Sequence record: ON528745
Source: Shigella phage ESH35
Reading direction: 5' to 3' (one strand)
DNA length: 64,000 nt
The notes under the pieces were generated by a model. The model searched no databases. It had not been told where the DNA came from and saw nothing but the letters and a program-made list of their open reading frames with translations. The first letter of the stretch is position 1. Every line of letters begins with the position of its first letter. Of the stretch, positions 3,689 through 49,586 are shown in pieces. A program made the translations under genes and the position numbers.

Positions 3689-4155
3689 ATTATGATAGAT
3701 TTTATCCTTGCGATTTTGTTAATGGTCCTGGCTGTAGGACCGTTCTTTTCGTTACAGGTTGTTTGCATAAATGTGAAGGGTGTTATAATAAATCAACATG
3801 GAATGCTAGAAATGGTGTTCCATTCACTGGTGAAACACTAGAACAATTAATTGAATGTTTGAATAATGATTATATAGAAGGATTGACTATAACCGGAGGT
3901 GACCCTCTCTATCCTGATAACCGAGATGTTGTTCATTGCATTGTTCAAACAGTAAAAAATTTTTATCCCAATAAAAGCATTTGGTTGTGGACAGGATATA
4001 AATTTGAAGATATTAAACAACTAGAAATGCTTAAATATGTTGATGTTATTATTGATGGGAAGTATGAGAAAAATCTTCCGACCAAAAAGCTGTGGCGAGG
4101 ATCAGATAATCAGCGACTTTGGTCAAATACCGATGGGGTGTGGAAACATGATTAA
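3685..4155 (+). CDS. nrdG: anaerobic RNR activating enzyme (radical SAM)
   Basis: 156 aa; CxxxCxxC motif (CLHKCEGC); ATGA overlap with nrdD stop. Confidence 0.9.
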   Translation: MNYDRFYPCDFVNGPGCRTVLFVTGCLHKCEGCYNKSTWNARNGVPFTGETLEQLIECLNNDYIEGLTITGGDPLYPDNRDVVHCIVQTVKNFYPNKSIWLWTGYKFEDIKQLEMLKYVDVIIDGKYEKNLPTKKLWRGSDNQRLWSNTDGVWKHD

Positions 4156-6350: not shown

Positions 6351-6616
6351 AATTTATTAATATTTCTATTACTATTGAAAATTATGGCATTTTCTATGTT
6401 GACCAATACATGAAAATTTCATTTTTCCCAAATAAGACTGGTATTGGATATTGGGAAAGCCATGTTTCTGAATTAAATGAAAGTGAATATGTTAGTACAC
6501 ATGAAAAGTTTTTAGACTTTTTATATCATGCTGATCTAACTAGTCATTATATAGATATTCATGAATTTAAAAAGATGATGGAAAAAGTATTCCAAGCATA
6601 CTGTTTACTTAGATAA
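6347..6616 (+). CDS. hypothetical protein (89 aa)
   Basis: ATGA overlap with previous ORF. Confidence 0.45.
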   Translation: MKFINISITIENYGIFYVDQYMKISFFPNKTGIGYWESHVSELNESEYVSTHEKFLDFLYHADLTSHYIDIHEFKKMMEKVFQAYCLLR

Positions 6617-6638
6617 CTGATATCCTCTATGCTTTAAG

Positions 6639-8164: not shown

Positions 8165-8188
8165 AAACCAAAACAAAGAGGATATTAA

Positions 8189-9391
8189 ATGAAAGTATGT
8201 ATTTTTATGGTTCGAGGTCTTGAAGGTTGTGGTGTAACTAAATTTTCTCTTGAGCAACGTGATTGGTTTATTAAGAATGGTCATGAAGTAACTTTGGTTT
8301 ATGCTAAAGATAAATCATTTACTCGTAATTGCGCGCATGATTATAAATCATTTTCAATTCCGGTTTTATTGGCAAAAGAATATGATAAAACACTTAAGCT
8401 GGTAAATGATTGTGATATTCTAATTATCAATTCAGTTCCTGCTACTTCGGTTGAAGAAGACACTATTAATAACTATAAAAAAATTATTGATAACATTAAA
8501 CCTTCTGTTCGTGTTGTAGTTTATCAACATGACCATTCTTCTCTTTCTTTGCGCCGAAATTTGGGATTAGAAGAAACTGTTCGTCGAGCTGATGTTATTT
8601 TTAGCCATTCTGATAATGGTGATTTTAATAAAGTTCTGATGAAAGAATGGTATCCTGAAACAGTTTCTCTGTTTGATGATATTGAAGAAGCACCGACAGT
8701 ATATAACTTTCAGCCTCCTATGGATATTGCGAAGGTTCGGTCAACCTACTGGAAAGATGTTTCTGAAATTAACATGAATATCAACCGTTGGATTGGTCGT
8801 ACGACCACATGGAAAGGTTTTTATCAGATGTTTGATTTTCATGAAAAACATCTTAAACCTGCAGGACTAAGTACTATTATGGAAGGTCTGGAACGTTCTC
8901 CAGCGTTCATTCCTATTAAAGAAAAAGGAATTCCATACGAGTATTATCGTCTTCATCAAGTAGACCAAATTAAAATTGCTCCTAATTTGCCAACGCAAAT
9001 TCTTGACCGTTATGTAAATAGCGAAATGCTTGAACGTATGAGTAAATCCGGATTTGGTTATCAGTTGAGTAAGTTGGATAAAAAATATCTACAGCGTTCT
9101 TTAGAATATACTCATCTCGAGCTTGGTGCATGTGGAACAATTCCGGTATTTTGGAAATCTACTGGCGAAAATTTAAAATTCCGTGTTGATAATACTCCTT
9201 TGACCTCGCATGATAGCGGTATCATTTGGTTTGATGAAAATGATATGGAATCAACATTTGAACGTATTAAAGAACTGTCATCTGACCGAGCTCTTTATGA
9301 CCGTGAGCGAGAAAAAGCATATGAATTTTTGTATCAGCATCAAGATTCAAGCTTCTGCTTTAAAGAACAGTTTGACATTATTACAAAATAA
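8189..9391 (+). CDS. agt: DNA alpha-glucosyltransferase
   Basis: 400 aa; near-identical to recalled T4 alpha-gt. Confidence 0.92.
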   Translation: MKVCIFMVRGLEGCGVTKFSLEQRDWFIKNGHEVTLVYAKDKSFTRNCAHDYKSFSIPVLLAKEYDKTLKLVNDCDILIINSVPATSVEEDTINNYKKIIDNIKPSVRVVVYQHDHSSLSLRRNLGLEETVRRADVIFSHSDNGDFNKVLMKEWYPETVSLFDDIEEAPTVYNFQPPMDIAKVRSTYWKDVSEINMNINRWIGRTTTWKGFYQMFDFHEKHLKPAGLSTIMEGLERSPAFIPIKEKGIPYEYYRLHQVDQIKIAPNLPTQILDRYVNSEMLERMSKSGFGYQLSKLDKKYLQRSLEYTHLELGACGTIPVFWKSTGENLKFRVDNTPLTSHDSGIIWFDENDMESTFERIKELSSDRALYDREREKAYEFLYQHQDSSFCFKEQFDIITK

Positions 9392-11034: not shown

Positions 11035-12719
11035 AGAATTTTAAACTAAACCGAGTTAGGTATCAAAATATAATGTCAGTAGGTGGAAATCCTATTGACA
11101 TTCAATTAGATAAGGTTCAAAAAACTCTTATTACTGGACGAAATGGCGGTGGTAAGTCTACTATGTTAGAAGCCATCACATTTGGGCTTTTTGGCAAGCC
11201 ATTTCGTGATGTAAAGAAAGGTCAATTAATAAACAGCACAAATAAGAAAGAACTTTTAGTTGAACTGTGGATGGAATATGATGAGAAAAAGTACTATATC
11301 AAAAGAGGACAAAAACCAAACGTTTTCGAAATCACCGTTAACGGTACACGTCTTAATGAATCTGCCAGCAGTAAAGATTTCCAAGCAGAATTTGAACAGC
11401 TTATCGGAATGTCATATGCCAGTTTCAAGCAGATTGTTGTCCTTGGTACAGCAGGGTATACCCCTTTCATGGGTTTGTCGACCCCTGCACGAAGAAAGCT
11501 TGTGGAAGACCTGCTTGAGGTAGGAACATTAGCTGAAATGGATAAGCTTAATAAAGCACTAATACGTGAATTAAATTCACAAAACCAAGTGCTTGATGTT
11601 AAAAAAGATAGTATTATCCAACAAATTAAAATATATAATGATAACGTTGAACGCCAGAAAAAATTAACTGGTGACAACCTTACTCGTCTTCAAAATATGT
11701 ATGATGATTTGGCAAAAGAAGCTAGAACGCTAAAATCAGAAATAGAAGAAGCTAATGAAAGATTAGTTAATATTGTTTTAGACGAAGACCCGACTGATGC
11801 ATTTAATAAAATCGGTCAAGAAGCAGTTTTAATTAAATCAAAAATTGACTCGTATAATAAAGTCATTAATATGTATCATGAAGGTGGATTATGTCCAACC
11901 TGCTTGTCACAATTAAGTTCCGGTGATAAAGTTGTTTCTAAAATTAAAGATAAAGTTTCTGAATGTACGCATTCGTTTGAACAGCTTTCAACACATCGTG
12001 ATAATTTAAAAGTTCTTGTTGATGAATACCGAGATAATATTAAAACCCAGCAGTCGTTGGCAAATGATATTCGCAATAAAAAGCAATCTCTAATCACGAC
12101 GGTAGATAAAGCTAAAAAAGTTAAAGCAGCTATAGAAAAAGCATCTTCTGAGTTTATTGACCATGCTGATGAAATAGCATTGCTTCAAGAAGAACTTGAT
12201 AAAATTGTTAAGACAAAAACTAATTTAGTAATGGAAAAATACCACCGAGGAATTTTGACTGATATGCTCAAAGATTCTGGTATTAAAGGTGCTATTATTA
12301 AAAAGTACATTCCATTATTTAATAAGCAGATTAACCATTATCTTAAAATAATGGAAGCGGATTATGTGTTTACATTAGATGAAGAATTTAATGAGACAAT
12401 TAAATCCCGTGGTCGTGAAGATTTTAGTTATGCTTCATTCAGTCAAGGTGAAAAAGCGCGAATTGATATTGCTCTTTTATTTACTTGGCGTGATATTGCT
12501 GAAAAAGTTTCAGGTGTTAAAATAAGTTGTTTATTTCTTGATGAAGTGTATGACGGTGCATTTGATGCTGAAGGCATTAAAAATGTAGCTAAAATTTTAG
12601 ATGGTTTGAAGGATACCAACTTCTTCATAATTTCGCATAAAGACCATGATCCGCAGGATTATGGACAGCATATTAAAATGGAAAAAGTTGGTAGATTTAG
12701 TGTTGCCACTATTAATTAA
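11031..12719 (+). CDS. 46: recombination endonuclease subunit (Rad50/SbcC-like ATPase)
   Basis: 562 aa, GTG start; Walker A GRNGGGKST, CPTC zinc hook, long coiled coil, C-terminal Walker B. Confidence 0.92.
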   Translation: MKNFKLNRVRYQNIMSVGGNPIDIQLDKVQKTLITGRNGGGKSTMLEAITFGLFGKPFRDVKKGQLINSTNKKELLVELWMEYDEKKYYIKRGQKPNVFEITVNGTRLNESASSKDFQAEFEQLIGMSYASFKQIVVLGTAGYTPFMGLSTPARRKLVEDLLEVGTLAEMDKLNKALIRELNSQNQVLDVKKDSIIQQIKIYNDNVERQKKLTGDNLTRLQNMYDDLAKEARTLKSEIEEANERLVNIVLDEDPTDAFNKIGQEAVLIKSKIDSYNKVINMYHEGGLCPTCLSQLSSGDKVVSKIKDKVSECTHSFEQLSTHRDNLKVLVDEYRDNIKTQQSLANDIRNKKQSLITTVDKAKKVKAAIEKASSEFIDHADEIALLQEELDKIVKTKTNLVMEKYHRGILTDMLKDSGIKGAIIKKYIPLFNKQINHYLKIMEADYVFTLDEEFNETIKSRGREDFSYASFSQGEKARIDIALLFTWRDIAEKVSGVKISCLFLDEVYDGAFDAEGIKNVAKILDGLKDTNFFIISHKDHDPQDYGQHIKMEKVGRFSVATIN

Positions 12720-13429
12720 TGTTTGTGCTTACAGTTATCATTATGCCACCTTGATAAATTTCCGAAAGTGGTAACTTTACCACAATGGACGCAAGTACCA
12801 GTCTTTTCAGTTTTCTTGCGTCCATTTGGATTTTTCTTGCAGAAATTTCTATGCGCTGCGATAACGCATTTCTTGCCTATCATTCCGCAGAATTCGCAGG
12901 ATGTTTCTTCAAGAATGATTGCTTTAAGCCCGTTTGAGATATTATTTCTGTGTTCTTTAGACATCGGTGGTCTAACTTTAGGATTAGGGTGATTCGGGCA
13001 GTTATCAAAATGCCATCGATTCATATTCCCGCTTAATCCGGACTTACCGCAATGTGGACAAGTTAGTCTTGCTTTATTAGCTACTGCATCAGACATTTTC
13101 TTTCGTGTCTCCTGGGAGAATTCTTTATTCTTTTCTATTTCCCAGAGTTTACGACGAATCCAACCGAAAGTTTTATTGTTACGTTTAGCGTATTTCGTGG
13201 AAACTGTCATCATGTTAGCAGCATAGACTAATTTTGGTTCAGAAGGATAAATTTTTACTAAAAGTTGATGAGCTACATAGTGCTCTTCCGGTGTTAAATC
13301 TACTAAGTTTGAAGCATCATCGCTGCCATTTAAACAGCGTGGTATAATGTGATGAGATTCAGTATAGCAATCAAGTTTTCGAGATTTAGCATTAGAGATT
13401 AACTTTTCATAAATTAGTTTATAATTCAT
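12716..13429 (-). mobile_element. free-standing HNH homing endonuclease with three C-x2-C...H...C zinc-knuckle repeats
   Basis: N-terminal HNH motif (SHHIIPR...NLVDLTPEEH); antisense to neighbours; 4-bp tail-to-tail overlap with gene 46. Confidence 0.75.
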
Positions 13430-13462
13430 AACATATCCTTTTGATACAGCGAGTGATAAACA

Positions 13463-13470
13463 TATTTATA
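13463..13470 (-). promoter_or_regulatory. late promoter TATAAATA for the HNH gene
   Basis: exact TATAAATA on - strand about 35 nt upstream of start; AAGGA SD at 6 nt spacing. Confidence 0.55.
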
Positions 13471-13480
13471 CGGAGGAACT

Positions 13481-13672
13481 GTGGCAGAATATTCAACTGG
13501 ACAGCATCTATTAACTTTTCCTGAAATAAAACGATATATTCTGAGAAATAATTTTTCTAATGAAGAGCATATAGTTACTGAATCTATGCTTAGGAATGCA
13601 TTTAAAGCAGAATATACAAAAATAATGTCCAATAGAAATGAAGCTTGGACTGTTACTGATTATTATGACTAA
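13481..13672 (+). CDS. hypothetical protein (63 aa)
   Basis: GTG start with GGAGG upstream. Confidence 0.4.
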   Translation: MAEYSTGQHLLTFPEIKRYILRNNFSNEEHIVTESMLRNAFKAEYTKIMSNRNEAWTVTDYYD

Positions 13673-16390: not shown

Positions 16391-16759
16391 ATGATTGAAA
16401 TTACTCTTAAAAAACCTGAAGATTTTCTGAAAGTAAAAGAAACTTTGACTCGTATGGGAATTGCTAATAATAAAGATAAAGTTCTGTATCAGTCCTGCCA
16501 CATTCTTCAGAAAAAAGGACTATACTATATCGTCCATTTTAAAGAAATGCTTCGTATGGATGGTCGTCAGGTTGAAATGACAGAAGAAGATGAAGTTCGT
16601 CGTGATTCGATTGCGTGGCTGTTAGAAGATTGGGGATTGATTGAAATCGTTCCTGGTCAAAGAACTTTTATGAAAGATTTAACCAATAACTTCCGAGTTA
16701 TTTCTTTTAAACAAAAACATGAATGGAAACTTGTTCCTAAATATACGATTGGTAATTAA
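16391..16759 (+). CDS. regA: translational repressor RegA
   Basis: 122 aa, position between 62 and 43. Confidence 0.85.
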   Translation: MIEITLKKPEDFLKVKETLTRMGIANNKDKVLYQSCHILQKKGLYYIVHFKEMLRMDGRQVEMTEEDEVRRDSIAWLLEDWGLIEIVPGQRTFMKDLTNNFRVISFKQKHEWKLVPKYTIGN

Positions 16760-16760
16760 T

Positions 16761-16982
16761 ATGACTGCTATAATTCCGCAAGAATACATGGCGTCTCTTA
16801 AAGAAAAATATAATCTTTCTGCAACAGAAACACTTTTTGATTTACCAGAAAACCTCCAACTAAAATTTCAGGTAGAATTTCAAAAATTAGTTCACCCAGA
16901 ACAAAAACACTTTACCGCAGTGGTTAAGTCAATTAATGCAGATGGATTAACAATTTTTCACCGACAACTGGTATTAATTTAA
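16761..16982 (+). CDS. hypothetical protein (73 aa)
   Basis: internal ATG of track ORF 16719..16982. Confidence 0.4.
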   Translation: MTAIIPQEYMASLKEKYNLSATETLFDLPENLQLKFQVEFQKLVHPEQKHFTAVVKSINADGLTIFHRQLVLI

Positions 16983-19757: not shown

Positions 19758-19770
19758 TAGAATAAATCTA

Positions 19771-19791
19771 GGGACCTCCGGGTCCCTTTTT
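19771..19791 (+). terminator. rho-independent terminator after gene 43
   Basis: GGGACC-tccg-GGTCCC then TTTTT. Confidence 0.7.
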
Positions 19792-19874
19792 CATACAAGT
19801 AATATAAATCTATACTTATGAAAAACAGATGATTCTGGACCTTTAGAATTCCCTAAAAAATTTTCACAAAACTG

Positions 19875-19903
19875 TTTACAAGACTGTTCTTCTGTGGTAC
19901 TAT
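19875..19903 (+). promoter_or_regulatory. T4-type early promoter with conserved leader
   Basis: TTTACA, 17 bp, TGgTACTAT; leader shared with copies at 38436 and 48910. Confidence 0.6.
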
Positions 19904-19940
19904 ACAACTATCAACTACTGATACAGATTTGGAGAATAAA

Positions 19941-20177
19941 ATGAAAATTGTTATGGGATGCTTAGCAGTTTGTTTAGTTGCATTAGTAGCAGTTCCATTT
20001 GTTAGTGTTGAAAATGATACTCAACCTGTGATTAAATCTAGCACCGTTATTCACACTAATGGTAAAATATCAGTTAAAATTGATGATAATCTTCATATGA
20101 ATACTAATGGAACGTTGGGTGTTCAATTAGGTAATACCTGTGTAAGCACTACTGGAGTAATTACTACTTGTATTTGA
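19941..20177 (+). CDS. small secreted protein with signal peptide (78 aa)
   Basis: GGAGA SD; hydrophobic N-terminus. Confidence 0.45.
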   Translation: MKIVMGCLAVCLVALVAVPFVSVENDTQPVIKSSTVIHTNGKISVKIDDNLHMNTNGTLGVQLGNTCVSTTGVITTCI

Positions 20178-20980: not shown

Positions 20981-21721
20981 ATGATTAGTGACTCTATGAC
21001 AGTTGAAGAAATCCGTCTTCATTTGGGGCTTGCATTAAAAGAAAAAGATTTCGTAGTTGATAAAACTGGTGTTAAAACTATTGAAATTATTGGCGCATCA
21101 TTTGTAGCAGATGAACCGTTTATTTTTGGCGCTCTTAATGATGAATACATTCAGCGTGAACTTGAATGGTATAAATCTAAGAGCTTGTTTGTTAAAGATA
21201 TTCCAGGTGAAACACCAAAGATTTGGCAGCAGGTAGCATCTTCTAAAGGCGAAATTAACTCGAATTATGGTTGGGCTATCTGGTCAGAAGATAACTATGC
21301 CCAGTATGATATGTGTTTAGCTGAACTTGGTCAAAATCCTGATTCTCGACGTGGTATCATGATTTATACTCGTCCATCCATGCAATTTGACTACAATAAA
21401 GATGGTATGTCAGATTTCATGTGTACGAATACAGTACAGTACCTGATTCGTGATAAGAAAGTCAATGCAGTAGTAAGCATGCGTTCAAATGACGTGGTCT
21501 TCGGATTCCGTAATGATTATGCATGGCAAAAATACGTATTAGATAAATTAGTATCTGATTTGAATGCAGGTGATTCAACTCGTCAGTATAAAGCAGGTTC
21601 CATTATATGGAATGTCGGGAGCCTTCATGTGTATTCCCGTCATTTTTATTTGGTTGACCATTGGTGGAAAACTGGTGAAACACATATTGCGAAAAAAGAT
21701 TATAACGGTGAGTGGAAATGA
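20981..21721 (+). CDS. 42: dCMP hydroxymethylase
   Basis: 246 aa, thymidylate-synthase-like fold motifs. Confidence 0.93.
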   Translation: MISDSMTVEEIRLHLGLALKEKDFVVDKTGVKTIEIIGASFVADEPFIFGALNDEYIQRELEWYKSKSLFVKDIPGETPKIWQQVASSKGEINSNYGWAIWSEDNYAQYDMCLAELGQNPDSRRGIMIYTRPSMQFDYNKDGMSDFMCTNTVQYLIRDKKVNAVVSMRSNDVVFGFRNDYAWQKYVLDKLVSDLNAGDSTRQYKAGSIIWNVGSLHVYSRHFYLVDHWWKTGETHIAKKDYNGEWK

Positions 21722-22560
21722 TTCAATTCGTAATTCCAAGCTATCAACGCGTAGGGGCAGTTTCTGCCCTTGATATGTTTCCATCTGATTATGAACCGCA
21801 TATTGTAGTACGTGAACACGAAGAAAAAGCTTATTATGACGCTTACGGGTCTAGAGCTAAAATTATAACTATTCCTGATGATGTTAACGGAATTGCTGGT
21901 ACTCGTAAAGCAATTACTGATATGTATGCAGGTCAACGAATTTGGATGATTGATGATGATACTACTATTTGTATGAGTTCAATGCGAAAGAAAGATGATC
22001 GTCGCTGTGTAGATAAAATTAATCAATTAACTCGTGAACAGTTCTATGAATTGATTCAATACGTTAAAGATGCCATGGATTGCGGTTATTATCATGGCCA
22101 TGCTCGTCTACCTATTTTTAAAATTACTTCATCTTGGGGTAATTATCGTGAAAATTCATATGGATTCACGAATACTTGGTATGACCTTGGAAAACTTACA
22201 ACAGAACAAATTGGGTATGGAAAAATTGATTTATGCGAAGATATGTATGCATTTCTCAATTTAATTAATCAAGGTTATCCGCATTTGGCCTTGTTCAAAT
22301 ATCTGGTTGTATCTGGAAAAGCACAGGCTCCGGGCGGGTGCAGTTCAATTCGTAGTAATTCAAAACATAATAGAGCTCTTGAGCAAATCAATAGAGAGTT
22401 TCCAGAGCAAGCTCGTTGGAAAACTTCTAATATTGAAAAACGAAAATCGTTGGGTGAAGAAGACGAGCCATTAAAGGTTCTTCGCATGTGTGTTTCGCGC
22501 AAAGAAAAATCAGAAGCATTTCATAAGTTTAATGCTATTCATCCAATAGCAGTTGATTAA
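21718..22560 (+). CDS. GT-A fold glycosyltransferase at the beta-gt locus (T2/T6 beta-alpha-gt type, inferred)
   Basis: 280 aa; DxD motif (IDDD); unlike recalled T4 beta-gt; ATGA overlap with gene 42. Confidence 0.6.
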   Translation: MIQFVIPSYQRVGAVSALDMFPSDYEPHIVVREHEEKAYYDAYGSRAKIITIPDDVNGIAGTRKAITDMYAGQRIWMIDDDTTICMSSMRKKDDRRCVDKINQLTREQFYELIQYVKDAMDCGYYHGHARLPIFKITSSWGNYRENSYGFTNTWYDLGKLTTEQIGYGKIDLCEDMYAFLNLINQGYPHLALFKYLVVSGKAQAPGGCSSIRSNSKHNRALEQINREFPEQARWKTSNIEKRKSLGEEDEPLKVLRMCVSRKEKSEAFHKFNAIHPIAVD

Positions 22561-22637
22561 TGCCTAAATTTATTGTGTTATAATTACTCTATCTTTAACC
22601 AGTGAGGAAAATATAATGATGCCTATGGAAAAAATGA

Positions 22638-23819
22638 ATGTCTATTGCAGATTTAAAATCCCGTTTGATTAAAGCTTCCACTTCTAAAATGACTGCTGAA
22701 CTGACTACATCTAAATTCTTTAATGAAAAGGATGTAATCCGTACAAAAATCCCAATGCTTAATATTGCTATTTCTGGTGCGATTGATGGCGGCATGCAGT
22801 CTGGTTTAACTATTTTCGCAGGGCCTTCTAAACACTTTAAATCAAATATGTCTTTGACTATGGTTGCGGCATATTTGAACAAATATCCTGACGCGGTTTG
22901 TCTATTCTATGATAGTGAATTTGGTATTACTCCAGCTTATTTGCGATCTATGGGAGTTGACCCGGAACGAGTAATTCATACGCCGATTCAGTCAGTTGAA
23001 CAGCTGAAAATTGATATGGTGAACCAGCTTGAAGCTATTGAGCGTGGTGAAAAGGTTATTGTATTCATCGACTCAATTGGTAATATGGCTTCTAAGAAAG
23101 AAACGGAAGATGCCTTGAATGAAAAATCTGTGGCAGATATGACTCGTGCTAAATCACTGAAGTCATTATTCCGTATTGTTACTCCTTATTTTAGTATTAA
23201 AAATATTCCATGTGTTGCAGTTAACCATACAATTGAAACAATTGAAATGTTTAGTAAAACCGTGATGACAGGTGGTACAGGCGTAATGTATTCGGCTGAT
23301 ACTGTATTCATTATCGGTAAGCGTCAGATTAAAGATGGTTCTGATCTTCAGGGGTATCAATTTGTTCTAAATGTAGAAAAATCTCGTACCGTTAAAGAAA
23401 AAAGTAAATTCTTTATTGATGTTAAATTTGACGGTGGTATCGATCCTTATTCTGGATTGTTAGATATGGCTCTAGAATTAGGATTTGTAGTAAAACCTAA
23501 AAATGGCTGGTATGCTCGTGAATTTCTTGACGAAGAAACCGGCGAGATGATTCGCGAAGAAAAATCTTGGCGTGCAAAAGATACTAACTGCACTACATTC
23601 TGGGGTCCTTTATTTAAGCATCAACCATTCCGAGATGCTATTAAACGTGCTTATCAGTTAGGTGCTATTGATAGTAATGAAATTGTTGAAGCTGAAGTTG
23701 ATGAATTGATTAACTCAAAGGTTGAAAAATTTAAATCTCCAGAAAGTAAAAGTAAATCAGCTGCTGATTTAGAAACTGACCTCGAGCAGTTAAGTGATAT
23801 GGAAGAATTTAATGAATAA
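22638..23819 (+). CDS. uvsX: RecA-like recombinase
   Basis: 393 aa; Walker A GPSKHFKS; matches recalled T4 UvsX. Confidence 0.95.
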   Translation: MSIADLKSRLIKASTSKMTAELTTSKFFNEKDVIRTKIPMLNIAISGAIDGGMQSGLTIFAGPSKHFKSNMSLTMVAAYLNKYPDAVCLFYDSEFGITPAYLRSMGVDPERVIHTPIQSVEQLKIDMVNQLEAIERGEKVIVFIDSIGNMASKKETEDALNEKSVADMTRAKSLKSLFRIVTPYFSIKNIPCVAVNHTIETIEMFSKTVMTGGTGVMYSADTVFIIGKRQIKDGSDLQGYQFVLNVEKSRTVKEKSKFFIDVKFDGGIDPYSGLLDMALELGFVVKPKNGWYAREFLDEETGEMIREEKSWRAKDTNCTTFWGPLFKHQPFRDAIKRAYQLGAIDSNEIVEAEVDELINSKVEKFKSPESKSKSAADLETDLEQLSDMEEFNE

Positions 23820-33990: not shown

Positions 33991-35306
33991 CATTTGATGA
34001 TTTGACAGAAGGCCAGAAAAACGCCTTTAACATCGTTATGAGGGCTATTAAAGAAAAGAAACATCATGTAACTATTAATGGACCTGCTGGTACTGGTAAG
34101 ACTACTCTTACTAAGTTCATCATTGAAGCTTTAATATCAACAGGCGAAACTGGTATCATTTTGGCAGCTCCTACACATGCAGCTAAAAAGATTCTTTCAA
34201 AACTGTCGGGGAAAGAAGCGAGTACTATTCACAGCATTCTTAAAATTAACCCGGTAACATATGAAGAAAATGTTCTTTTTGAACAGAAGGAAGTACCAGA
34301 TTTAGCTAAATGCAGGGTATTAATCTGCGATGAAGTGTCAATGTATGATAGAAAGCTATTTAAAATTCTGCTTTCAACTATTCCACCTTGGTGTACTATA
34401 ATTGGAATAGGGGATAATAAGCAAATTAGACCTGTTGATCCAGGAGAAAATACTGCTTATATCAGTCCATTCTTTACACACAAAGATTTTTATCAGTGTG
34501 AACTTACTGAAGTTAAACGCAGTAATGCTCCTATTATTGATGTAGCTACTGATGTTCGTAACGGTAAGTGGATTTATGATAAAGTTGTTGACGGGCATGG
34601 AGTACGTGGATTTACTGGTGATACCGCTTTACGCGATTTTATGGTAAATTATTTTTCAATCGTCAAATCGCTAGATGATTTGTTTGAAAATCGCGTAATG
34701 GCATTTACGAATAAATCTGTTGACAAGTTAAACAATATTATTCGCAAAAAGATTTTTGAAACTGATAAAGATTTTATTGTCGGTGAAATTATTGTAATGC
34801 AAGAACCGTTAATTAAAACATATAAAATTGATGGAAAGCCTGTATCAGAAATTATTTTTAATAACGGACAATTAGTTCGTATTATAGAAGCAGAGTATAC
34901 ATCGACGTTTGTTAAAGCTCGTGGTGTTCCTGGAGAATATCTAATTCGTCATTGGGATTTAACAGTAGAAACTTACGGTGATGATGAATATTATCGTGAA
35001 AAGATTAAAATAATTTCATCTGATGAAGAGTTATATAAGTTTAACCTATTTTTAGGTAAAACGGCAGAAACTTATAAAAATTGGAACAAAGGCGGAAAAG
35101 CTCCGTGGAGTGATTTTTGGGATGCTAAATCACAGTTCAGTAAAGTGAAAGCACTTCCTGCATCAACATTCCATAAAGCTCAGGGTATGTCTGTAGACCG
35201 TGCTTTCATTTATACGCCTTGTATTCATTATGCAGATGCTGAATTAGCTCAACAACTTCTTTATGTTGGTGTTACCCGTGGTCGTTATGACGTATTTTAT
35301 GTGTGA
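33987..35306 (+). CDS. dda: SF1 DNA helicase Dda
   Basis: 439 aa; Walker A GPAGTGKTT; matches recalled T4 Dda. Confidence 0.92.
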   Translation: MTFDDLTEGQKNAFNIVMRAIKEKKHHVTINGPAGTGKTTLTKFIIEALISTGETGIILAAPTHAAKKILSKLSGKEASTIHSILKINPVTYEENVLFEQKEVPDLAKCRVLICDEVSMYDRKLFKILLSTIPPWCTIIGIGDNKQIRPVDPGENTAYISPFFTHKDFYQCELTEVKRSNAPIIDVATDVRNGKWIYDKVVDGHGVRGFTGDTALRDFMVNYFSIVKSLDDLFENRVMAFTNKSVDKLNNIIRKKIFETDKDFIVGEIIVMQEPLIKTYKIDGKPVSEIIFNNGQLVRIIEAEYTSTFVKARGVPGEYLIRHWDLTVETYGDDEYYREKIKIISSDEELYKFNLFLGKTAETYKNWNKGGKAPWSDFWDAKSQFSKVKALPASTFHKAQGMSVDRAFIYTPCIHYADAELAQQLLYVGVTRGRYDVFYV

Positions 35307-35312
35307 GGATAT

Positions 35313-35573
35313 ATGATTAACATCAATTCAAAATATTTAAATCGTCTAATAGATGGTATAAGGAAGCATACTAATAAGCAAGATAATCTCGATGTTATGG
35401 TAACAGGAGCTGAGCTCCTTCATAAGCTTTATCTTATAAGTGATACTATATTAGCAATTAAACGAATTGAAAAACAATCATATCACAGTAATACAGATAC
35501 GGTAATTACACTAGATGAAAGTGTCTGTAAATTACTAATTAAATTTGAGGAAGCTATTCGTGGAAATAACTAA
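35313..35573 (+). CDS. hypothetical protein (86 aa)
   Basis: ATG ORF. Confidence 0.45.
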   Translation: MININSKYLNRLIDGIRKHTNKQDNLDVMVTGAELLHKLYLISDTILAIKRIEKQSYHSNTDTVITLDESVCKLLIKFEEAIRGNN

Positions 35574-38374: not shown

Positions 38375-38405
38375 AGTTTAATTTTTTTTTCATAAAACTA
38401 TATAC

Positions 38406-38448
38406 ATCAGTAGTTGATTATGGTACTATATCAATATCAACTACTGAT
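38406..38448. repeat. 13-bp perfect inverted repeat (ATCAGTAGTTGAT / ATCAACTACTGAT) flanking a -10-like TGGTACTAT
   Basis: read directly; right arm equals the leader of the early-promoter cassettes. Confidence 0.7.
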
Positions 38449-38472
38449 ACAGAAAACAACTTGGAGAATAAA

Positions 38473-38742
38473 ATGGAAAACTTAATTATCATCGAGCAAT
38501 CTTTCAACGATTATGGTATGGCTTACGGTTATCGTGCGATAATGGAAGATTCTCGTGGATGTGTTATCGATATTGCTGAATGTAAAGATTTACTGCAGCT
38601 TTTGAAGATTGTTCGCAAAAATTGGGATTGTGAAAACATTAAAGCTCGTGTTGTTACAGAAGAAGAAACTGTTTTTCATGATGTAAAATTCGCTAAAGGT
38701 GCTGCTACTCTTCTGAAACGTATCGCTCCACTGTTCAATTAA
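38473..38742 (+). CDS. hypothetical protein (89 aa)
   Basis: GGAGA SD and leader identical to that of ORF 19941. Confidence 0.45.
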   Translation: MENLIIIEQSFNDYGMAYGYRAIMEDSRGCVIDIAECKDLLQLLKIVRKNWDCENIKARVVTEEETVFHDVKFAKGAATLLKRIAPLFN

Positions 38743-39577: not shown

Positions 39578-39952
39578 ATGTTTAAAATCGGTAAGAAATA
39601 TCGTGTTCGCGAAGGTGAAGAAAAGAAATATCTACTTTCTGCTAGTAATAGGAATGGTTCTATTAATGCCGTAATATCTACAAGCGAATTTATCGTTGAA
39701 GATATGAAAGGTCATAATGTTACAATGATTAGTACAGCAACTAGCAGAAATGCTGGAAAAATTCTTCACAGTCTGCGGAGTGAAGTTCTAATTTATGATG
39801 AAGAATTTGACTTCTTCGAAGAAGTTCCTGAAGATTTTGATTTTGAATGCACTATCACTATGAAATCTGGTGACCCTCTTTCTTTTACAGTTAAAGATGA
39901 AAGAAGCCGTTTGAGAATTATTAGTCTCCTTCAAGCCATTAAATTTAAGTGA
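39578..39952 (+). CDS. hypothetical protein (124 aa)
   Basis: internal ATG of track ORF 39572..39952. Confidence 0.45.
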   Translation: MFKIGKKYRVREGEEKKYLLSASNRNGSINAVISTSEFIVEDMKGHNVTMISTATSRNAGKILHSLRSEVLIYDEEFDFFEEVPEDFDFECTITMKSGDPLSFTVKDERSRLRIISLLQAIKFK

Positions 39953-40218
39953 AAATTATGAAATATATTAATCGTTCTATCGCGGCATTAGTATTAGCAG
40001 TGTCTTTAGCAGGATGTACTGATGCTGATAATGCAACCAAAGTTTTATCTTCAAGTGGTTTTACTAATATTGAAATCACTGGATATAATTGGTTTGGTTG
40101 TTCTGAAAATGATTTCCAACATACTGGATTTCGTGCTATTGGACCTACTGGGCAGAAAGTAGAAGGAACAGTATGTTCTGGGCTGTTCTTTAAGGATTCA
40201 ACTATTCGTTTTAAATAA
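39949..40218 (+). CDS. putative lipoprotein (89 aa)
   Basis: signal peptide with lipobox LAGC. Confidence 0.5.
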   Translation: MKIMKYINRSIAALVLAVSLAGCTDADNATKVLSSSGFTNIEITGYNWFGCSENDFQHTGFRAIGPTGQKVEGTVCSGLFFKDSTIRFK

Positions 40219-40284: not shown

Positions 40285-42105
40285 GTGATGATTAAGAATG
40301 AAATTAAAATTCTGAGCGATATTGAACATATCAAAAAGCGTAGCGGCATGTATATTGGCTCTTCTGCTAATGAAATGCATGAGCGCTTTCTGTTTGGTAA
40401 ATGGGAAAGTGTTCAGTATGTACCTGGTCTTGTTAAGCTTATTGATGAAATTATCGATAACTCAGTAGATGAAGGTATTCGTACTAAGTTTAAATTCGCG
40501 AATAAAATTAATGTTACCATTAAAGATAATCAGGTAACAGTTGAAGATAACGGTCGCGGTATTCCACAAGCGATGGTTAAAACACCTACTGGTGAAGAAA
40601 TTCCTGGTCCTGTTGCTGCCTGGACTATTCCAAAAGCAGGTGGTAACTTCGGTGATGATAAAGAACGCGTCACCGGTGGTATGAATGGTGTTGGTTCTAG
40701 TTTGACAAACATTTTTTCTGTGATGTTTGTCGGTGAAACTGGCGATGGTCAAAATAATATTGTAGTTCGTTGTTCAAATGGTATGGAAAATAAATCCTGG
40801 GAAACTATTCCTGGAAAATGGAAAGGAACTCGTGTTACTTTCATTCCTGATTTTATGTCATTTGAAACTAATGAGCTGTCTCAGGTTTATCTTGACATTA
40901 CACTGGACCGTCTCCAGACACTTGCTGTCGTTTATCCTGATATTCAATTTACTTTTAATGGTAAAAAGGTTCAGGGCAATTTTAAGAAATATGCACGACA
41001 GTATGATGAACATGCTATTGTTCAAGAACAAGAAAATTGTTCTATTGCGGTTGGTCGTTCACCGGATGGTTTTCGTCAATTAACTTACGTGAATAACATT
41101 CATACTAAGAATGGTGGCCATCACATTGACTGTGTTATGGATGATATTTGCGAAGACCTTATTCCACAAATCAAACGTAAATTCAAAATTGATGTAACTA
41201 AAGCACGCGTTAAAGAATGTTTGACTATCGTTATGTTTGTTCGTGATATGAAAAACATGCGATTTGATTCTCAAACTAAAGAGCGTTTGACTTCTCCATT
41301 TGGCGAAATTCGTAGTCATATTCAACTTGATGCTAAAAAGATTTCACGCGCTATTCTAAATAATGAAGCAATTCTGATGCCGATTATTGAAGCTGCGTTG
41401 GCTCGTAAATTGGCGGCAGAAAAAGCAGCAGAAACTAAAGCAGCTAAAAAGGCTTCTAAAGCTAAGGTTCATAAACATATCAAAGCGAATCTTTGTGGTA
41501 AAGATGCTGACACTACTCTTTTCTTGACTGAGGGTGATTCTGCTATCGGATATCTTATTGATGTTCGTGATAAAGAACTTCATGGTGGTTATCCATTGCG
41601 TGGTAAAGTTCTTAACAGCTGGGGTATGTCATATGCTGATATGCTTAAAAACAAAGAACTATTTGATATTTGCGCAATCACTGGATTAGTTCTTGGTGAA
41701 AAAGCTGAAAACTTGAATTATCATAATATTGCTATTATGACCGATGCTGACCATGATGGTCTAGGAAGCATTTATCCTTCTCTGCTCGGGTTTTTTAGTA
41801 ATTGGCCAGAATTGTTTGAGCAAGGACGAATTCGCTTTGTCAAAACTCCTGTAATCATCGCTCAGGTCGGTAAAAAACAAGAATGGTTTTATACAATCGC
41901 TGAATATGAGAGTGCCAAAGATGCTCTACCTAAACATAGCATCCGTTATATTAAAGGACTTGGCTCTTTGGAAAAATCTGAATATCGTGAGATGATTCAA
42001 AATCCAGCATATGATGTTGTTAAACTTCCTGAGAACTGGAAAGAGCTTTTTGAAATGCTCATGGGAGATAATGCTGACCTTCGCAAAGAATGGATGAGCC
42101 AGTAG
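40285..42105 (+). CDS. 39: DNA topoisomerase II large (ATPase) subunit, unsplit
   Basis: 606 aa from GTG (605 from ATG 40288); GHKL ATPase motifs. Confidence 0.93.
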   Translation: MMIKNEIKILSDIEHIKKRSGMYIGSSANEMHERFLFGKWESVQYVPGLVKLIDEIIDNSVDEGIRTKFKFANKINVTIKDNQVTVEDNGRGIPQAMVKTPTGEEIPGPVAAWTIPKAGGNFGDDKERVTGGMNGVGSSLTNIFSVMFVGETGDGQNNIVVRCSNGMENKSWETIPGKWKGTRVTFIPDFMSFETNELSQVYLDITLDRLQTLAVVYPDIQFTFNGKKVQGNFKKYARQYDEHAIVQEQENCSIAVGRSPDGFRQLTYVNNIHTKNGGHHIDCVMDDICEDLIPQIKRKFKIDVTKARVKECLTIVMFVRDMKNMRFDSQTKERLTSPFGEIRSHIQLDAKKISRAILNNEAILMPIIEAALARKLAAEKAAETKAAKKASKAKVHKHIKANLCGKDADTTLFLTEGDSAIGYLIDVRDKELHGGYPLRGKVLNSWGMSYADMLKNKELFDICAITGLVLGEKAENLNYHNIAIMTDADHDGLGSIYPSLLGFFSNWPELFEQGRIRFVKTPVIIAQVGKKQEWFYTIAEYESAKDALPKHSIRYIKGLGSLEKSEYREMIQNPAYDVVKLPENWKELFEMLMGDNADLRKEWMSQ

Positions 42106-42134
42106 TTTACTTTACCACAAGGATGTGGTATAAT
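42106..42134 (+). promoter_or_regulatory. T4-type early promoter
   Basis: TTTACT, 17 bp, TGgTATAAT. Confidence 0.6.
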
Positions 42135-45731: not shown

Positions 45732-45755
45732 AAGGGCTTCGGCCCTTTTGTTTTA
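45732..45755 (+). terminator. rho-independent terminator
   Basis: AAGGGC-ttcg-GCCCTT then TTTGTTTT. Confidence 0.7.
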
Positions 45756-45791
45756 AGAGAAATTATGATTCCGACATAAAGGAAAGTTTAA

Positions 45792-46349: not shown

Positions 46350-46368
46350 AAATTTTTTCACAAAACGG

Positions 46369-46397
46369 TTTACATACCACAAGGACCGTGGTACTAT
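46369..46397 (+). promoter_or_regulatory. T4-type early promoter cassette
   Basis: TTTACA, 17 bp, TGgTACTAT; modules shared with 46875 and 48881. Confidence 0.6.
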
Positions 46398-46425
46398 TAC
46401 CCTATCAACTACGGAGGAGCGGAAA

Positions 46426-46689
46426 ATGAAATTTAAATTTTATTACGCTAAACATAAAATAACTGATGAGTTTGTGTCAGTTGAATATTCTAGCGATGAT
46501 GAAGGCATGATTTATACTCGCTTAGGATTATCGCATTGGGAGTCTGATCAGCCTTATTTTTCAACTCCCGAAGAAATTACACGCTTAGTTAATGGTCATA
46601 TGAATGACCACTGGAATGTAATTCTTTCAGATAGTCTTAAAGCGGCTATTAATAGTAATGAAATGAAAATCGCTGAGATTGAGCTATGA
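46426..46689 (+). CDS. hypothetical acidic protein (87 aa)
   Basis: GGAGGAG SD. Confidence 0.45.
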   Translation: MKFKFYYAKHKITDEFVSVEYSSDDEGMIYTRLGLSHWESDQPYFSTPEEITRLVNGHMNDHWNVILSDSLKAAINSNEMKIAEIEL

Positions 46690-46867
46690 GTTCATTATGG
46701 TGGTGTTTCGTTTGGTTAATTAGTATTCCATTAATTTGTTTAACATTTACTTTTGTGATGAGGTTATTATGAAAATTTTGAATTCTGTACTTATTGCTTG
46801 TGCGTGGTGGGTTGCACAGGTTTCAGCAGTGGTGATTGGTATTCACATTTATTACGAATATTTTTAA
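46686..46867 (+). other. two overlapping micro-ORFs (28 aa and 32 aa) encoding hydrophobic peptides
   Basis: ATG ORFs 46686..46772 and 46769..46867; ATGA coupling. Confidence 0.2.
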
Positions 46868-46874
46868 AAAGTTG

Positions 46875-46903
46875 TTTACAAGACTGTTCTTCCGTGGTAC
46901 TAT
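46875..46903 (+). promoter_or_regulatory. T4-type early promoter cassette
   Basis: TTTACA, 17 bp, TGgTACTAT. Confidence 0.6.
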
Positions 46904-46931
46904 TACCCTATCAACTACGGAGGAACAGAAA

Positions 46932-47045
46932 ATGAAAAAGATTGTTAAAGCTATATGGAATGTAGTTATAATACTAATAGTTTTGAGTATATTCCCAATC
47001 GTTTTAATGATTGATGTATTAAACGTTTACTTTGGATTTATGTGA
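46932..47045 (+). CDS. small membrane peptide (37 aa)
   Basis: GGAGGA SD, single transmembrane segment. Confidence 0.3.
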   Translation: MKKIVKAIWNVVIILIVLSIFPIVLMIDVLNVYFGFM

Positions 47046-47052
47046 GGAAAAT

Positions 47053-47211
47053 ATGAATATTGCAAAATTATTAGGAGTTATTTCATTTATTTGTTGGATA
47101 GTAGCATGTGTTTTAACTATCTGTATTGATGCTAGCAGTGTGTTTTCACAAGCTTTAGCCCAGGGTATGTGTGCATATTTAACATTTGTGTTGTTATCTA
47201 CTAATGATTAA
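47053..47211 (+). CDS. small membrane protein (52 aa)
   Basis: GAGGA SD, two hydrophobic segments. Confidence 0.3.
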   Translation: MNIAKLLGVISFICWIVACVLTICIDASSVFSQALAQGMCAYLTFVLLSTND

Positions 47212-48827: not shown

Positions 48828-48860
48828 AGGGAGAGCCGAGGCTCTCCCTTTTTTATTTTA
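48828..48860 (+). terminator. rho-independent terminator
   Basis: 9-bp stem AGGGAGAGC-cgag-GCTCTCCCT then TTTTTTATTTT. Confidence 0.8.
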
Positions 48861-48880
48861 AAATTTTTTTCACAAAACGG

Positions 48881-48909
48881 TTTACAACCAAAGCATACTG
48901 TGGTACTAT
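48881..48909 (+). promoter_or_regulatory. T4-type early promoter cassette upstream of motA
   Basis: TTTACA, 17 bp, TGgTACTAT. Confidence 0.6.
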
Positions 48910-48950
48910 ACAACTATCAACTACTGATACAGAATTACGGAGATTAGAAA

Positions 48951-49586
48951 ATGTCTAAAGTAACTTACATCATCAAAGCTTCTAACGATGTTCTGAATGA
49001 AAAAACTGCTGCGATTTTAATTACTATTGCTAAGAAAGATTTCATTACAGCTGCAGAAGTTCGTGAGGTGCATCCAGATTTAGGTAACGCAGTAGTTAAT
49101 AGTAATATTGGGGTATTGATTAAAAAAGGCCTGGTGGAGAAATCTGGTGATGGATTAATCATTACAGGTGAAGCTCAGGATATTATTTCAAACGCAGCAA
49201 CTTTATACGCGCAGGAAAATGCTCCGGAACTGCTGAAAAAACGAGCAACTCGTAAAGCTCGTGAGATTACTTCTGATATGGAAGAAGATAAAGACCTCAT
49301 GTTAAAACTTTTAGATGAAAATGGATTTGTTCTTAAAAAGGTCGAAACTTATCGCAGTAACTATCTCGCTATTTTAGAAAAACGCACTCACGGAATTCGT
49401 AATTTTGAAATTAACAATAATGGAAATATGCGAATTTTTGGATACAAAATGATGGAACATCATATTCAGAAATTTACTGATATCGGAATGTCATGTAAAA
49501 TCGCTAAAAACGGTAATGTGTATCTTGACATTAAACGTTCAGCAGAAAACATTGAAGCTGTAATCACTGTAGCATCTGAACTGTGA
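48951..49586 (+). CDS. motA: middle-transcription activator MotA
   Basis: 211 aa as in T4, upstream of asiA. Confidence 0.8.
   Translation: MSKVTYIIKASNDVLNEKTAAILITIAKKDFITAAEVREVHPDLGNAVVNSNIGVLIKKGLVEKSGDGLIITGEAQDIISNAATLYAQENAPELLKKRATRKAREITSDMEEDKDLMLKLLDENGFVLKKVETYRSNYLAILEKRTHGIRNFEINNNGNMRIFGYKMMEHHIQKFTDIGMSCKIAKNGNVYLDIKRSAENIEAVITVASEL

Follow-up and report, generated by a model that had tools for sequence, protein, structure and literature searches.

The early promoters of bacteriophage T4 have reportedly been covered also by Liebig and Ruger in 1989, by Wilkens and Ruger in 1996 and by Miller et al. in 2003. They are built from an UP element, a -35 element, a TGn extension and a -10 element, and additional consensus regions accompany these elements (Hinton 2010, PMC2988021). 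Promoter-early stem-loop (PeSL) cassettes were defined in RB49 and phi1, and the model proposed for them expects chimeric cassettes after recombination (Arbiol 2010, PMC2839356). Crossing over of neighboring PeSLs is expected to produce mini-circles. PeSLs have also been described in the pairs T4/PST and nt-1/KVP40 (Comeau, Arbiol and Krisch 2014, PMC4122927). According to the latter study, the T4/PST promoter follows the consensus TTTACW-N17-TAYWAT and is accompanied by an upstream stem-loop of variable sequence. Fig. 6A of the same study sets ndd.4/.5 of T4 against ORF268/269 of PST, an example that appears to come from the denB-ndd region. Finally, the strong sites of the RegB endoribonuclease conform to the consensus GGAGRAYARAA (Uzan and Miller 2010, PMC3014915).

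We analyzed a stretch of 64,000 nucleotides from Shigella phage ESH35 (sequence record ON528745), which we refer to as the window. The window comes from a Tequatrovirus (T4-like coliphage) and shares about 96-98% identity with Kha5h, AR1 and T4. A search with the 5-kb stretch around 46350-46931 matched 946 phage records, the best of them belonging to Tequatrovirus; over this stretch Kha5h ranked highest (98.4% identity), followed by Sf22, AR1 and PYPS2T (about 97%). T4 is 96-97% identical over most of the window, or 88-99% when compared block by block, and the colinear blocks run along T4 in descending order, from 46.0 kb to 1 and onward from 168.9 to 161 kb. In the orientation of the window, early genes lie on the + strand, and the annotated order is rIIA-rIIB-denB.1-denB-ndd.x-ac-52-motA.1-motA-arn-asiA.

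A first-pass annotation of the window had proposed that at least five intergenic sites carry early promoters with conserved leaders, and had compared them to PeSLs. All five that it listed are present where it placed them, as intergenic units of about 90 bp that share the + strand. Together with the genes behind them, they are as follows:

19853..19943, + strand: cassette P19874, with an A/T-rich UP region, -35 TTTACA (19875-19880), TGn, -10 TACTAT (19898-19903), a predicted +1 at about 19910, a leader of type y (CTATCAACTACTGATACAG), GGAG at 19931 and ATG at 19941.
19941-20177: the 78-aa ORF behind P19874 (phrog_4189), upstream of imm.1.
38380..38475, + strand: cassette P38401, with a T-run UP region adjoining the motB stop codon, a degenerate -35 TATACA (38401-38406), TGn, -10 TACTAT (38424-38429), a predicted +1 at about 38436, a leader of type y, GGAG at 38463 and ATG at 38473.
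38473-38742: the 89-aa ORF behind P38401 (phrog_3720).
46350..46428, + strand: cassette P46368, with an UP region running from the denB stop codon, -35 TTTACA (46369-46374), a TACCAC..GTGGTA inverted repeat in the spacer, -10 TACTAT (46392-46397), a predicted +1 at about 46404, a leader of type x (CTATCAACTACGGAGGAG), GGAG at 46413 and ATG at 46426.
46426..46867, + strand: the genes between P46368 and P46874, namely an 87-aa ORF (46426-46689, phrog_2390), an ndd.6-like ORF (46686-46772) and an ndd.5-like ORF (46769-46867).
46861..46934, + strand: cassette P46874, adjoining the ndd.5 stop codon, with -35 TTTACA (46875-46880), -10 TACTAT (46898-46903), a predicted +1 at about 46910, a leader of type x, GGAG at 46919 and ATG at 46932.
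46932-47045: ndd.4 (37 aa), behind P46874.
48861..48953, + strand: cassette P48880, the motA promoter, with -35 TTTACA (48881-48886), -10 TACTAT (48904-48909), a predicted +1 at about 48916, a leader of type y, GGAG at 48939 and ATG at 48951.
48951-49586: motA, behind P48880.

A promoter scan found TTTACA-17-TACTAT with a TG-extended -10 in four of the five copies. This agrees with the PeSL consensus published for T4/PST and with the published architecture of T4 early promoters (PMC2988021), and supports the identity of the units as early promoter cassettes. The remaining copy, at 38401 (TATACA-17-TACTAT), fell below the threshold of the consensus promoter scan; the same sequence, including the degenerate -35, is kept in T4 at about 6.6 kb. 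TG precedes the -10 in all five copies, as either GTGGTACTAT or ATGGTACTAT. Directly upstream of each copy lies a block of A-runs and T-runs, which in three cases starts at the preceding gene's stop codon. Downstream, CTATCAAC is invariant, and its A, located 7 nt past the -10, is the predicted start site. The two leader types that had been claimed were both found: type y consists of CTACTGATACAG, 6-14 nt, GGAG, 6-8 nt and ATG (P19874, P38401, P48880), and type x of CTACGGAGGA, 6 nt and ATG (P46368, P46874). GGAG stands 6-9 nt ahead of the ATG in all five leaders.

With respect to T4, the copies occupy orthologous positions within the same genus (motA, ndd.4, imm.1, post-denB and post-motB) and share the same architecture. 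The T4 equivalents are located at about 163.7 kb (motA), 166.8 kb (ndd.4), 27.1 kb (imm.1 side), 167.0 kb (denB side) and 6.6 kb (motB side). The sequence features of T-even early promoters are present: -35 and -10 elements 17 bp apart, TGn and UP elements, and a position and orientation before early genes orthologous to those of T4. Nothing essential differs from the T4 promoters, although the window has another post-denB leader and, after three of its promoters, small ORFs that are intact. The comparison with PeSLs is similarly close. Both are repeats of about 100 bp that extend from an upstream stop codon to the Shine-Dalgarno sequence and ATG amid small non-essential early ORFs. As in a PeSL, a stop codon in A/T-rich DNA, a sigma-70-like promoter, a Shine-Dalgarno sequence and a start codon form a composite unit that is repeated. 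Moreover, the published Fig. 6A example (PMC4122927) appears to fall in the denB-ndd region that contains P46368 and P46874. Since both the PeSL consensus and the ndd.4/ndd.5 example have been published, the first-pass annotation correctly recognized a known element, here in one more isolate from an intensively studied genus, and the window adds no new kind of element.

The likeness to PeSLs is less complete with respect to the stem-loop. Two upstream hairpins are clear:

19770..19787, + strand: a hairpin resembling a terminator, AGGGACCTCCGGGTCCCT with a T-run behind it, about 85 nt ahead of the P19874 -35 (fold z = -2.28).
48828..48849, + strand: an intrinsic terminator, made up of the hairpin AGGGAGAGCCGAGGCTCTCCCT and a T6 tail, located behind motA.1 and immediately ahead of P48880 (z = -4.08).

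One further copy, P46368, has the 6-bp TACCAC/GTGGTA repeat in its spacer, with a fold that is not significant (z = -0.8), and a stem-loop scan at P46874 and P38401 found none. A stem-loop or terminator is thus clear in two of the five copies only, so that it was rejected as a constant part of the cassette, and in this respect the cassettes are incomplete as PeSLs. RNA structure in the leaders was considered separately. A hairpin of the form TATCA-ACTAC-TGATA was rejected as the cause of leader conservation (-1.8 to -3.8 kcal/mol, z from -0.07 to -0.49): the leaders are unstructured, and shuffled sequence folds as well as the small hairpin of the y leader. Membership in a known RNA family was likewise rejected, with zero Rfam matches in the whole window and leader folds that were not significant.

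How far does the similarity between the five copies extend? The pattern GGTACTATNNNNCTATCAACTAC, allowing up to three mismatches, matched the window only at 19896, 38422, 46390, 46896 and 48902, always on the + strand. In shuffled sequences 0.01 matches were expected, and five were reached in none of 100 shuffles. A loose scan put the number of early-type promoters on the + strand at about 13; their -35 to -10 register is the same throughout, and most of them share the UP region, GTTTAC, the GTGGTA flank and an A-rich stretch before the ATG. Over the 22 nt past the -10, however, the mean identity was 0.74 within the five; it was 0.34 for the eight remaining promoters and 0.43 across the two groups. 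The likeness of the five copies therefore exceeds the general T4 early-promoter consensus. Conservation past the -10 into the leader, as the first-pass annotation had described, is borne out by these values, and so is its view that flanking modules are shared, the likeness being by no means confined to the -35 and -10 hexamers.

The shared segments form a mosaic. Exact matches connect P19874 and P46874 (GTTTACAAGACTGTTCTTC at 19874 and 46874), P19874 and P48880 (the 34-mer GTGGTACTATACAACTATCAACTACTGATACAGA at 19894 and 48900), and P46368 and P46874 (the 31-mer GTGGTACTATTACCCTATCAACTACGGAGGA at 46388 and 46894); the last two matches are longer than had been listed. TATCAACTACTGATACAG recurs exactly at 19909, 38435 and 48915, and CTATCAACTACGGAGGA at 46402 and 46908. 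P46368 and P46874 together amount to a 46-nt direct repeat (46386-46431 and 46892-46937), 96% identical, with the copies 506 bp apart. When the copies are read block by block, P46368 and P48880 have the UP block in common, and P19874 nearly so. The spacer is identical in P19874 and P46874, whereas its sequence varies among the window's other early promoters. In the block from the -10 to the leader, P46368 goes with P46874, and P19874 with P48880 and P38401. A more distant relative shares part of the spacer with P46368:

42105..42135, + strand: the rIIA.1 promoter, related by spacer only (TACCACAAGGA, at 42113) and with a leader that is not of the family type.

The claim that two copies have an identical upstream stretch was correct in substance and inexact in detail: a 22-mer, TTTTTTCACAAAACGGTTTACA, is present at both 46353 and 48865, but 48861 is the sole position of the 26-mer that had been quoted, AAATTTTTTTCACAAAACGGTTTACA. 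The discrepancy amounts to one base in a T-run, and the other shared strings had been quoted correctly.

We also considered 2:2 sites in the four best copies. To the left of the -10, the pairing of 19874 with 46874 was favored 7:1, and to the right of it the pairing of 19874 with 48880 was favored 6:0; the third pairing received zero support. Since the pairings on the two sides of the -10 differ, no single tree fits, and exchange between copies is needed. Together with the exact pairwise matches of 19-34 nt, this switch at the -10 agrees with the proposal that the segments are combined differently among copies.

Related phages reveal the same kind of exchange at single loci. At the promoter downstream of denB, the upstream and spacer blocks are identical in all phages examined. 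The leader is of type x in the window, UKE3-1 and AR1, and of type y in Kha5h, T4, T2, RB14 and HP3. The same 87-aa ORF stands behind the x leader (window, UKE3-1, AR1) and behind the y leader (Kha5h, HP3), so that phages sharing 97-98% identity differ in the leader at one locus. Across the junction query for the denB leader, AR1 matches the window exactly. Both leader states are common: for each junction query, the best match reached 95% identity or more in about 190 records. We used an exact-pattern scan of IMG/VR for module variants; its 19 loci come from a few genomes and are too few for statistics. One IMG/VR phage (L019) has a third combination at ndd.4, an ACAA discriminator with the x Shine-Dalgarno sequence. 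Loci outside the window have still further combinations, among them the P19874 upstream block joined to the P38401 leader (L007, L010, L020). In about 26 cassette copies from eight genomes CTATCA is invariant, while the preceding 4 nt and the following leader each have 4-5 variants. Overall, 514 phage records contained the cassette, with 1264 occurrences between them, and every record belongs to T4-like coliphages and close kin. The window thus provides a clean in-silico case of chimeric cassettes, and of a post-denB leader dimorphism that is common across sequenced Tequatroviruses.

Taken together with the Tequatrovirus assignment, the T4 orthology and the module swaps and indels in relatives, which support the original reading of the sites as PeSL-like early promoters with conserved leaders, these observations suggest the following. 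The units are very probably T-even immediate-early promoters, each with a short leader and a ribosome-binding site, whose paralogous copies became mosaic through recombination. Judging from the sequence and the T4 literature, host sigma-70 RNA polymerase would contact the UP region, the GTTTACA -35, TGn and the TACTAT -10 at the fixed 17-bp spacing. As in other T-even early promoters, it would do so right after infection, before any phage protein is made. Transcription would start about 7 nt past the -10, at the A of CTATCAAC, and the resulting leader of about 22-38 nt would be unstructured and present its GGAG Shine-Dalgarno sequence for immediate translation. The cassettes would be paralogues, beyond being promoters under a common functional constraint. 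T4-type recombination acts on patches shorter than 50 bp, and the cassettes may therefore swap segments with each other and with the alleles of co-infecting relatives. The expected outcome would be chimeric cassettes that contain upstream, spacer and leader segments in different combinations. The mosaic is best explained by homologous recombination or gene conversion, acting both among cassettes and among the alleles present in mixed infections. As to the pathway, allelic exchange in co-infection and ectopic conversion within one genome fit the mosaic alike.

Could selection for promoter and translation strength at every position produce the same pattern without recombination or common descent? 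T4 early promoters do have a consensus beyond the hexamers (PMC2988021), and most of the 13 promoters of the window have in common the features named above, from the UP region to the A-rich stretch ahead of the ATG. However, eight equally canonical early promoters get by with unrelated spacers and leaders (the 0.34 against 0.74 above), and the exact identities include spacer positions. The sharp switch of the quartet pairing at the -10 and the different leaders at one locus in nearly identical phages also speak against pure convergence. So does the comparison of Kha5h, AR1 and the window, which suggests that module states are incongruent with the flanking phylogeny. We consider convergence very improbable as the whole explanation. 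A different proposal concerns the start-site/leader block itself (CTATCAACTAC...), which might be an operator or RNA element marking an immediate-early sub-regulon, perhaps alongside the promoter function. The invariance of CTATCA between varying neighbors fits such a role, and the mechanism that stops early promoters has been described as unknown (PMC2988021, PMC3014915). Yet only five of the window's early promoters, about 13 in number, carry the block, the leader RNA folds have z of -0.1 to -0.5, Rfam returned zero matches, and no candidate binding factor has been identified. Moreover, start-site preference (a pyrimidine at -1, an A at +1 and a distance of 7 nt to the -10) or recent common descent could equally well account for the invariance of CTATCA. 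None of our tests favored a regulatory role, and we regard such a signal as unlikely. The same low likelihood applies to its specific form, in which CTATCAAC and the two leaders would define a sub-regulon of motA, ndd.4 and small membrane or unknown ORFs recognized by a phage or host factor. If this were the case, the sub-regulon could serve rapid shut-off of early promoters or selective handling of their mRNAs, and the x/y leader dimorphism, widespread in the genus, would represent a switch of expression level or of RegB sensitivity.

The repeats might also be the ends of a mobile element or site-specific attachment sites, in place of substrates for general homologous recombination. Arbiol et al. 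(PMC2839356) considered that PeSLs might have a recombinase or helper protein of their own, and the insertion of a 75-aa ORF in HP3, described below, has flanking direct repeats. What would be expected of such elements was nonetheless not what we found: there are no terminal inverted repeats, only A/T-run pseudo-palindromes, and no target-site duplication beyond the cassette. All copies are co-oriented with the genes that they serve, the crossover points differ from case to case, and the retrieved annotations of the cassette region suggest no associated recombinase. This reading was rejected, and we consider it exceedingly improbable.

Under the preferred reading of mosaic early promoter cassettes, and in keeping with the published PeSL model of modular shuffling, the cassettes would act as portable homology at which small early ORFs are acquired, deleted or exchanged for others. 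Indels and replacements at or beside the cassettes do occur between close relatives, as they do for PeSLs. In HP3 and UKE3-1, an extra 75-aa ORF (phrog_10955) separates motA.1 from motA. A cassette stands on either side of this ORF, the two having CTATCAAATAAATGAACTGAAAC in common, and the alignment to the window breaks inside 48901-48923, the block of the -10 and start site. In bringing its own promoter, this ORF resembles the morons of lambdoid phages, genes that carry a promoter and a terminator of their own. In contrast to morons, the flanking regulatory repeats here supply the homology for insertion, and the orientation is that of the neighboring genes. Behind the denB cassette, four states are observed: an 8-codon remnant in T4, the 87-aa ORF (window, Kha5h, HP3 and PYPS2T), a 68-aa ORF in T2, and both ORFs in RB14. 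Accordingly, the content of the 46426..46867 segment differs between T4, T2, RB14 and the window. At the denB-ndd locus the Yersinia pseudotuberculosis phage PYPS2T, which we take to be PST-like, has the arrangement of the window. The points of crossover vary: depending on the case, they are located after the -35, at CTATCAA, at the Shine-Dalgarno sequence or at the ATG.

Other changes have a different signature. T4 is without the 78-aa ORF behind P19874, most of the 89-aa ORF behind P38401 and the full ORF behind P46368. These three deletions relative to the window end in 8-nt ATGAAAAT-type repeats at or near start codons, with no second cassette involved. Crossover from cassette to cassette is therefore not the sole route of gene loss, and perhaps not the main one. 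This sets the present case somewhat apart from PeSLs, as several adjacent deletions here used microhomology at start codons in place of a second cassette. In a search with the predicted junction, the deletion expected from a crossover between P46368 and P46874 did not occur as a single-piece match in the best 25 of 500 matching records, all of which retain the roughly 500 bp between the two cassettes. As for breakpoints, indels adjoin cassettes in relatives, but of the 16 rearrangement boundaries between the window and T4, three coincide with the five cassettes, against none for the eight remaining early promoters, an enrichment that is only borderline by our own estimate under a null in which boundaries favor gene junctions. 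The cassettes nevertheless offer one plausible route to the gain and loss of small accessory genes, in addition to serving the first gene expression of T4-like phages within seconds of infection. For annotation, they indicate promoters, the starts of small ORFs that often go unannotated, and likely RegB sites.

As for RegB, the leaders resemble its targets in T4 early mRNAs in having a GGAG Shine-Dalgarno sequence in an unstructured intergenic leader with A-rich 3' context. The match to the GGAGRAYARAA consensus is 11/11 at 19931 and 38463 and 10/11 at 48939 (motA), so messages from these three copies are probably inactivated by RegB within minutes: the endoribonuclease would recognize the GGAG motif after the early mRNAs have been translated for a short time. 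The x leaders at 46413 and 46919 (GGAGGAG/GGAGGAA) differ from such targets in reaching only 8/11, and GGAG is in any case a common Shine-Dalgarno sequence in T4.

Relative to the window and most of its relatives, the reference T4 genome carries three short-repeat deletions. Each lies behind a family cassette, that is, one of the five plus-strand early promoter-leader units, and starts no more than 8 nt from the start codon that follows it.

Deletions in T4, with T4 position, corresponding window stretch and consequence
T4 ~27.0 kb; window 19941-20177; a 78-aa ORF is removed
T4 ~6.55 kb; window 38473-38742; an in-frame remnant of ~20 codons is left of an 89-aa ORF
T4 ~167.03 kb; window 46426-46689; an in-frame remnant of 8 codons (MKIAEIEL) is left of an 87-aa ORF

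The T4 record examined has no annotated CDS at any of the three positions.

The window itself lacks DNA at 47042-47057, where ~1.1 kb present in every relative compared (T4 166624-165508) is missing. The missing genes are ndd.3, ndd.2a, ndd.2, ndd.1 and ndd, together with stp where the relative has it; the phage is therefore without the nucleoid-disruption gene and stp. The junction lies inside a 16-nt repeat, GTGAGGAAAATATGAA; in both ndd.3 and ac, this repeat is made up of the gene's ribosome-binding site and its start codon. As one piece, this junction was found in none of the 495 matching phage records.

A gain can be seen between motA.1 and motA in two relatives, where a 75-aa ORF (phrog_10955, function unknown) is inserted and brings its own second promoter.

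Stretches concerned
HP3 locus (L025), 8227-8640
UKE3-1 locus (L026), 8279-8690

The discriminator of this second promoter (the 4-nt block between the -10 element and the CTATCA start-site block) is AGAC, which is unlike that in the cassettes of the window's close relatives; it matches the one that three IMG/VR phage genomes of 170.5 kb (L002-L004) have in their cassettes. This match hints that the ORF was imported from a more distant lineage.

Further differences from T4 include the absence from the window of the nrdD intron with I-TevII, mobC, mobB and the mobA/60.1 segment, and ~950 bp of different DNA in place of the segA/beta-glucosyltransferase region. Conversely, five window stretches of 200-800 bp each have no T4 counterpart, and the gene junctions that hold them are without an early-promoter cassette.

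Window sites of the nrdD intron/I-TevII, mob and segA-region differences
2406; 3685-3699; 8173-8198; 41705-41770; 21703-22650

Window stretches absent from T4
6358-6622; 12703-13487; 16759-16975; 35306-35538; 39580-39956

Within the promoters themselves, a 6-bp inverted repeat, TACCAC...GTGGTA, is present in the spacers of the denB-downstream promoter (46375-46394) and the rIIA.1 promoter (42113-42132). One of its arms is the conserved TGn/-10 flank, and folding of the repeat was not significant.

Separately, a hairpin resembling a bidirectional terminator, AAGGGCTTCGGCCCTT, lies between denB.1 and denB (window 45732-45790). Alignments to several relatives break off at this point, where RB14 contains an additional 240 bp annotated as RB32ORF268c.
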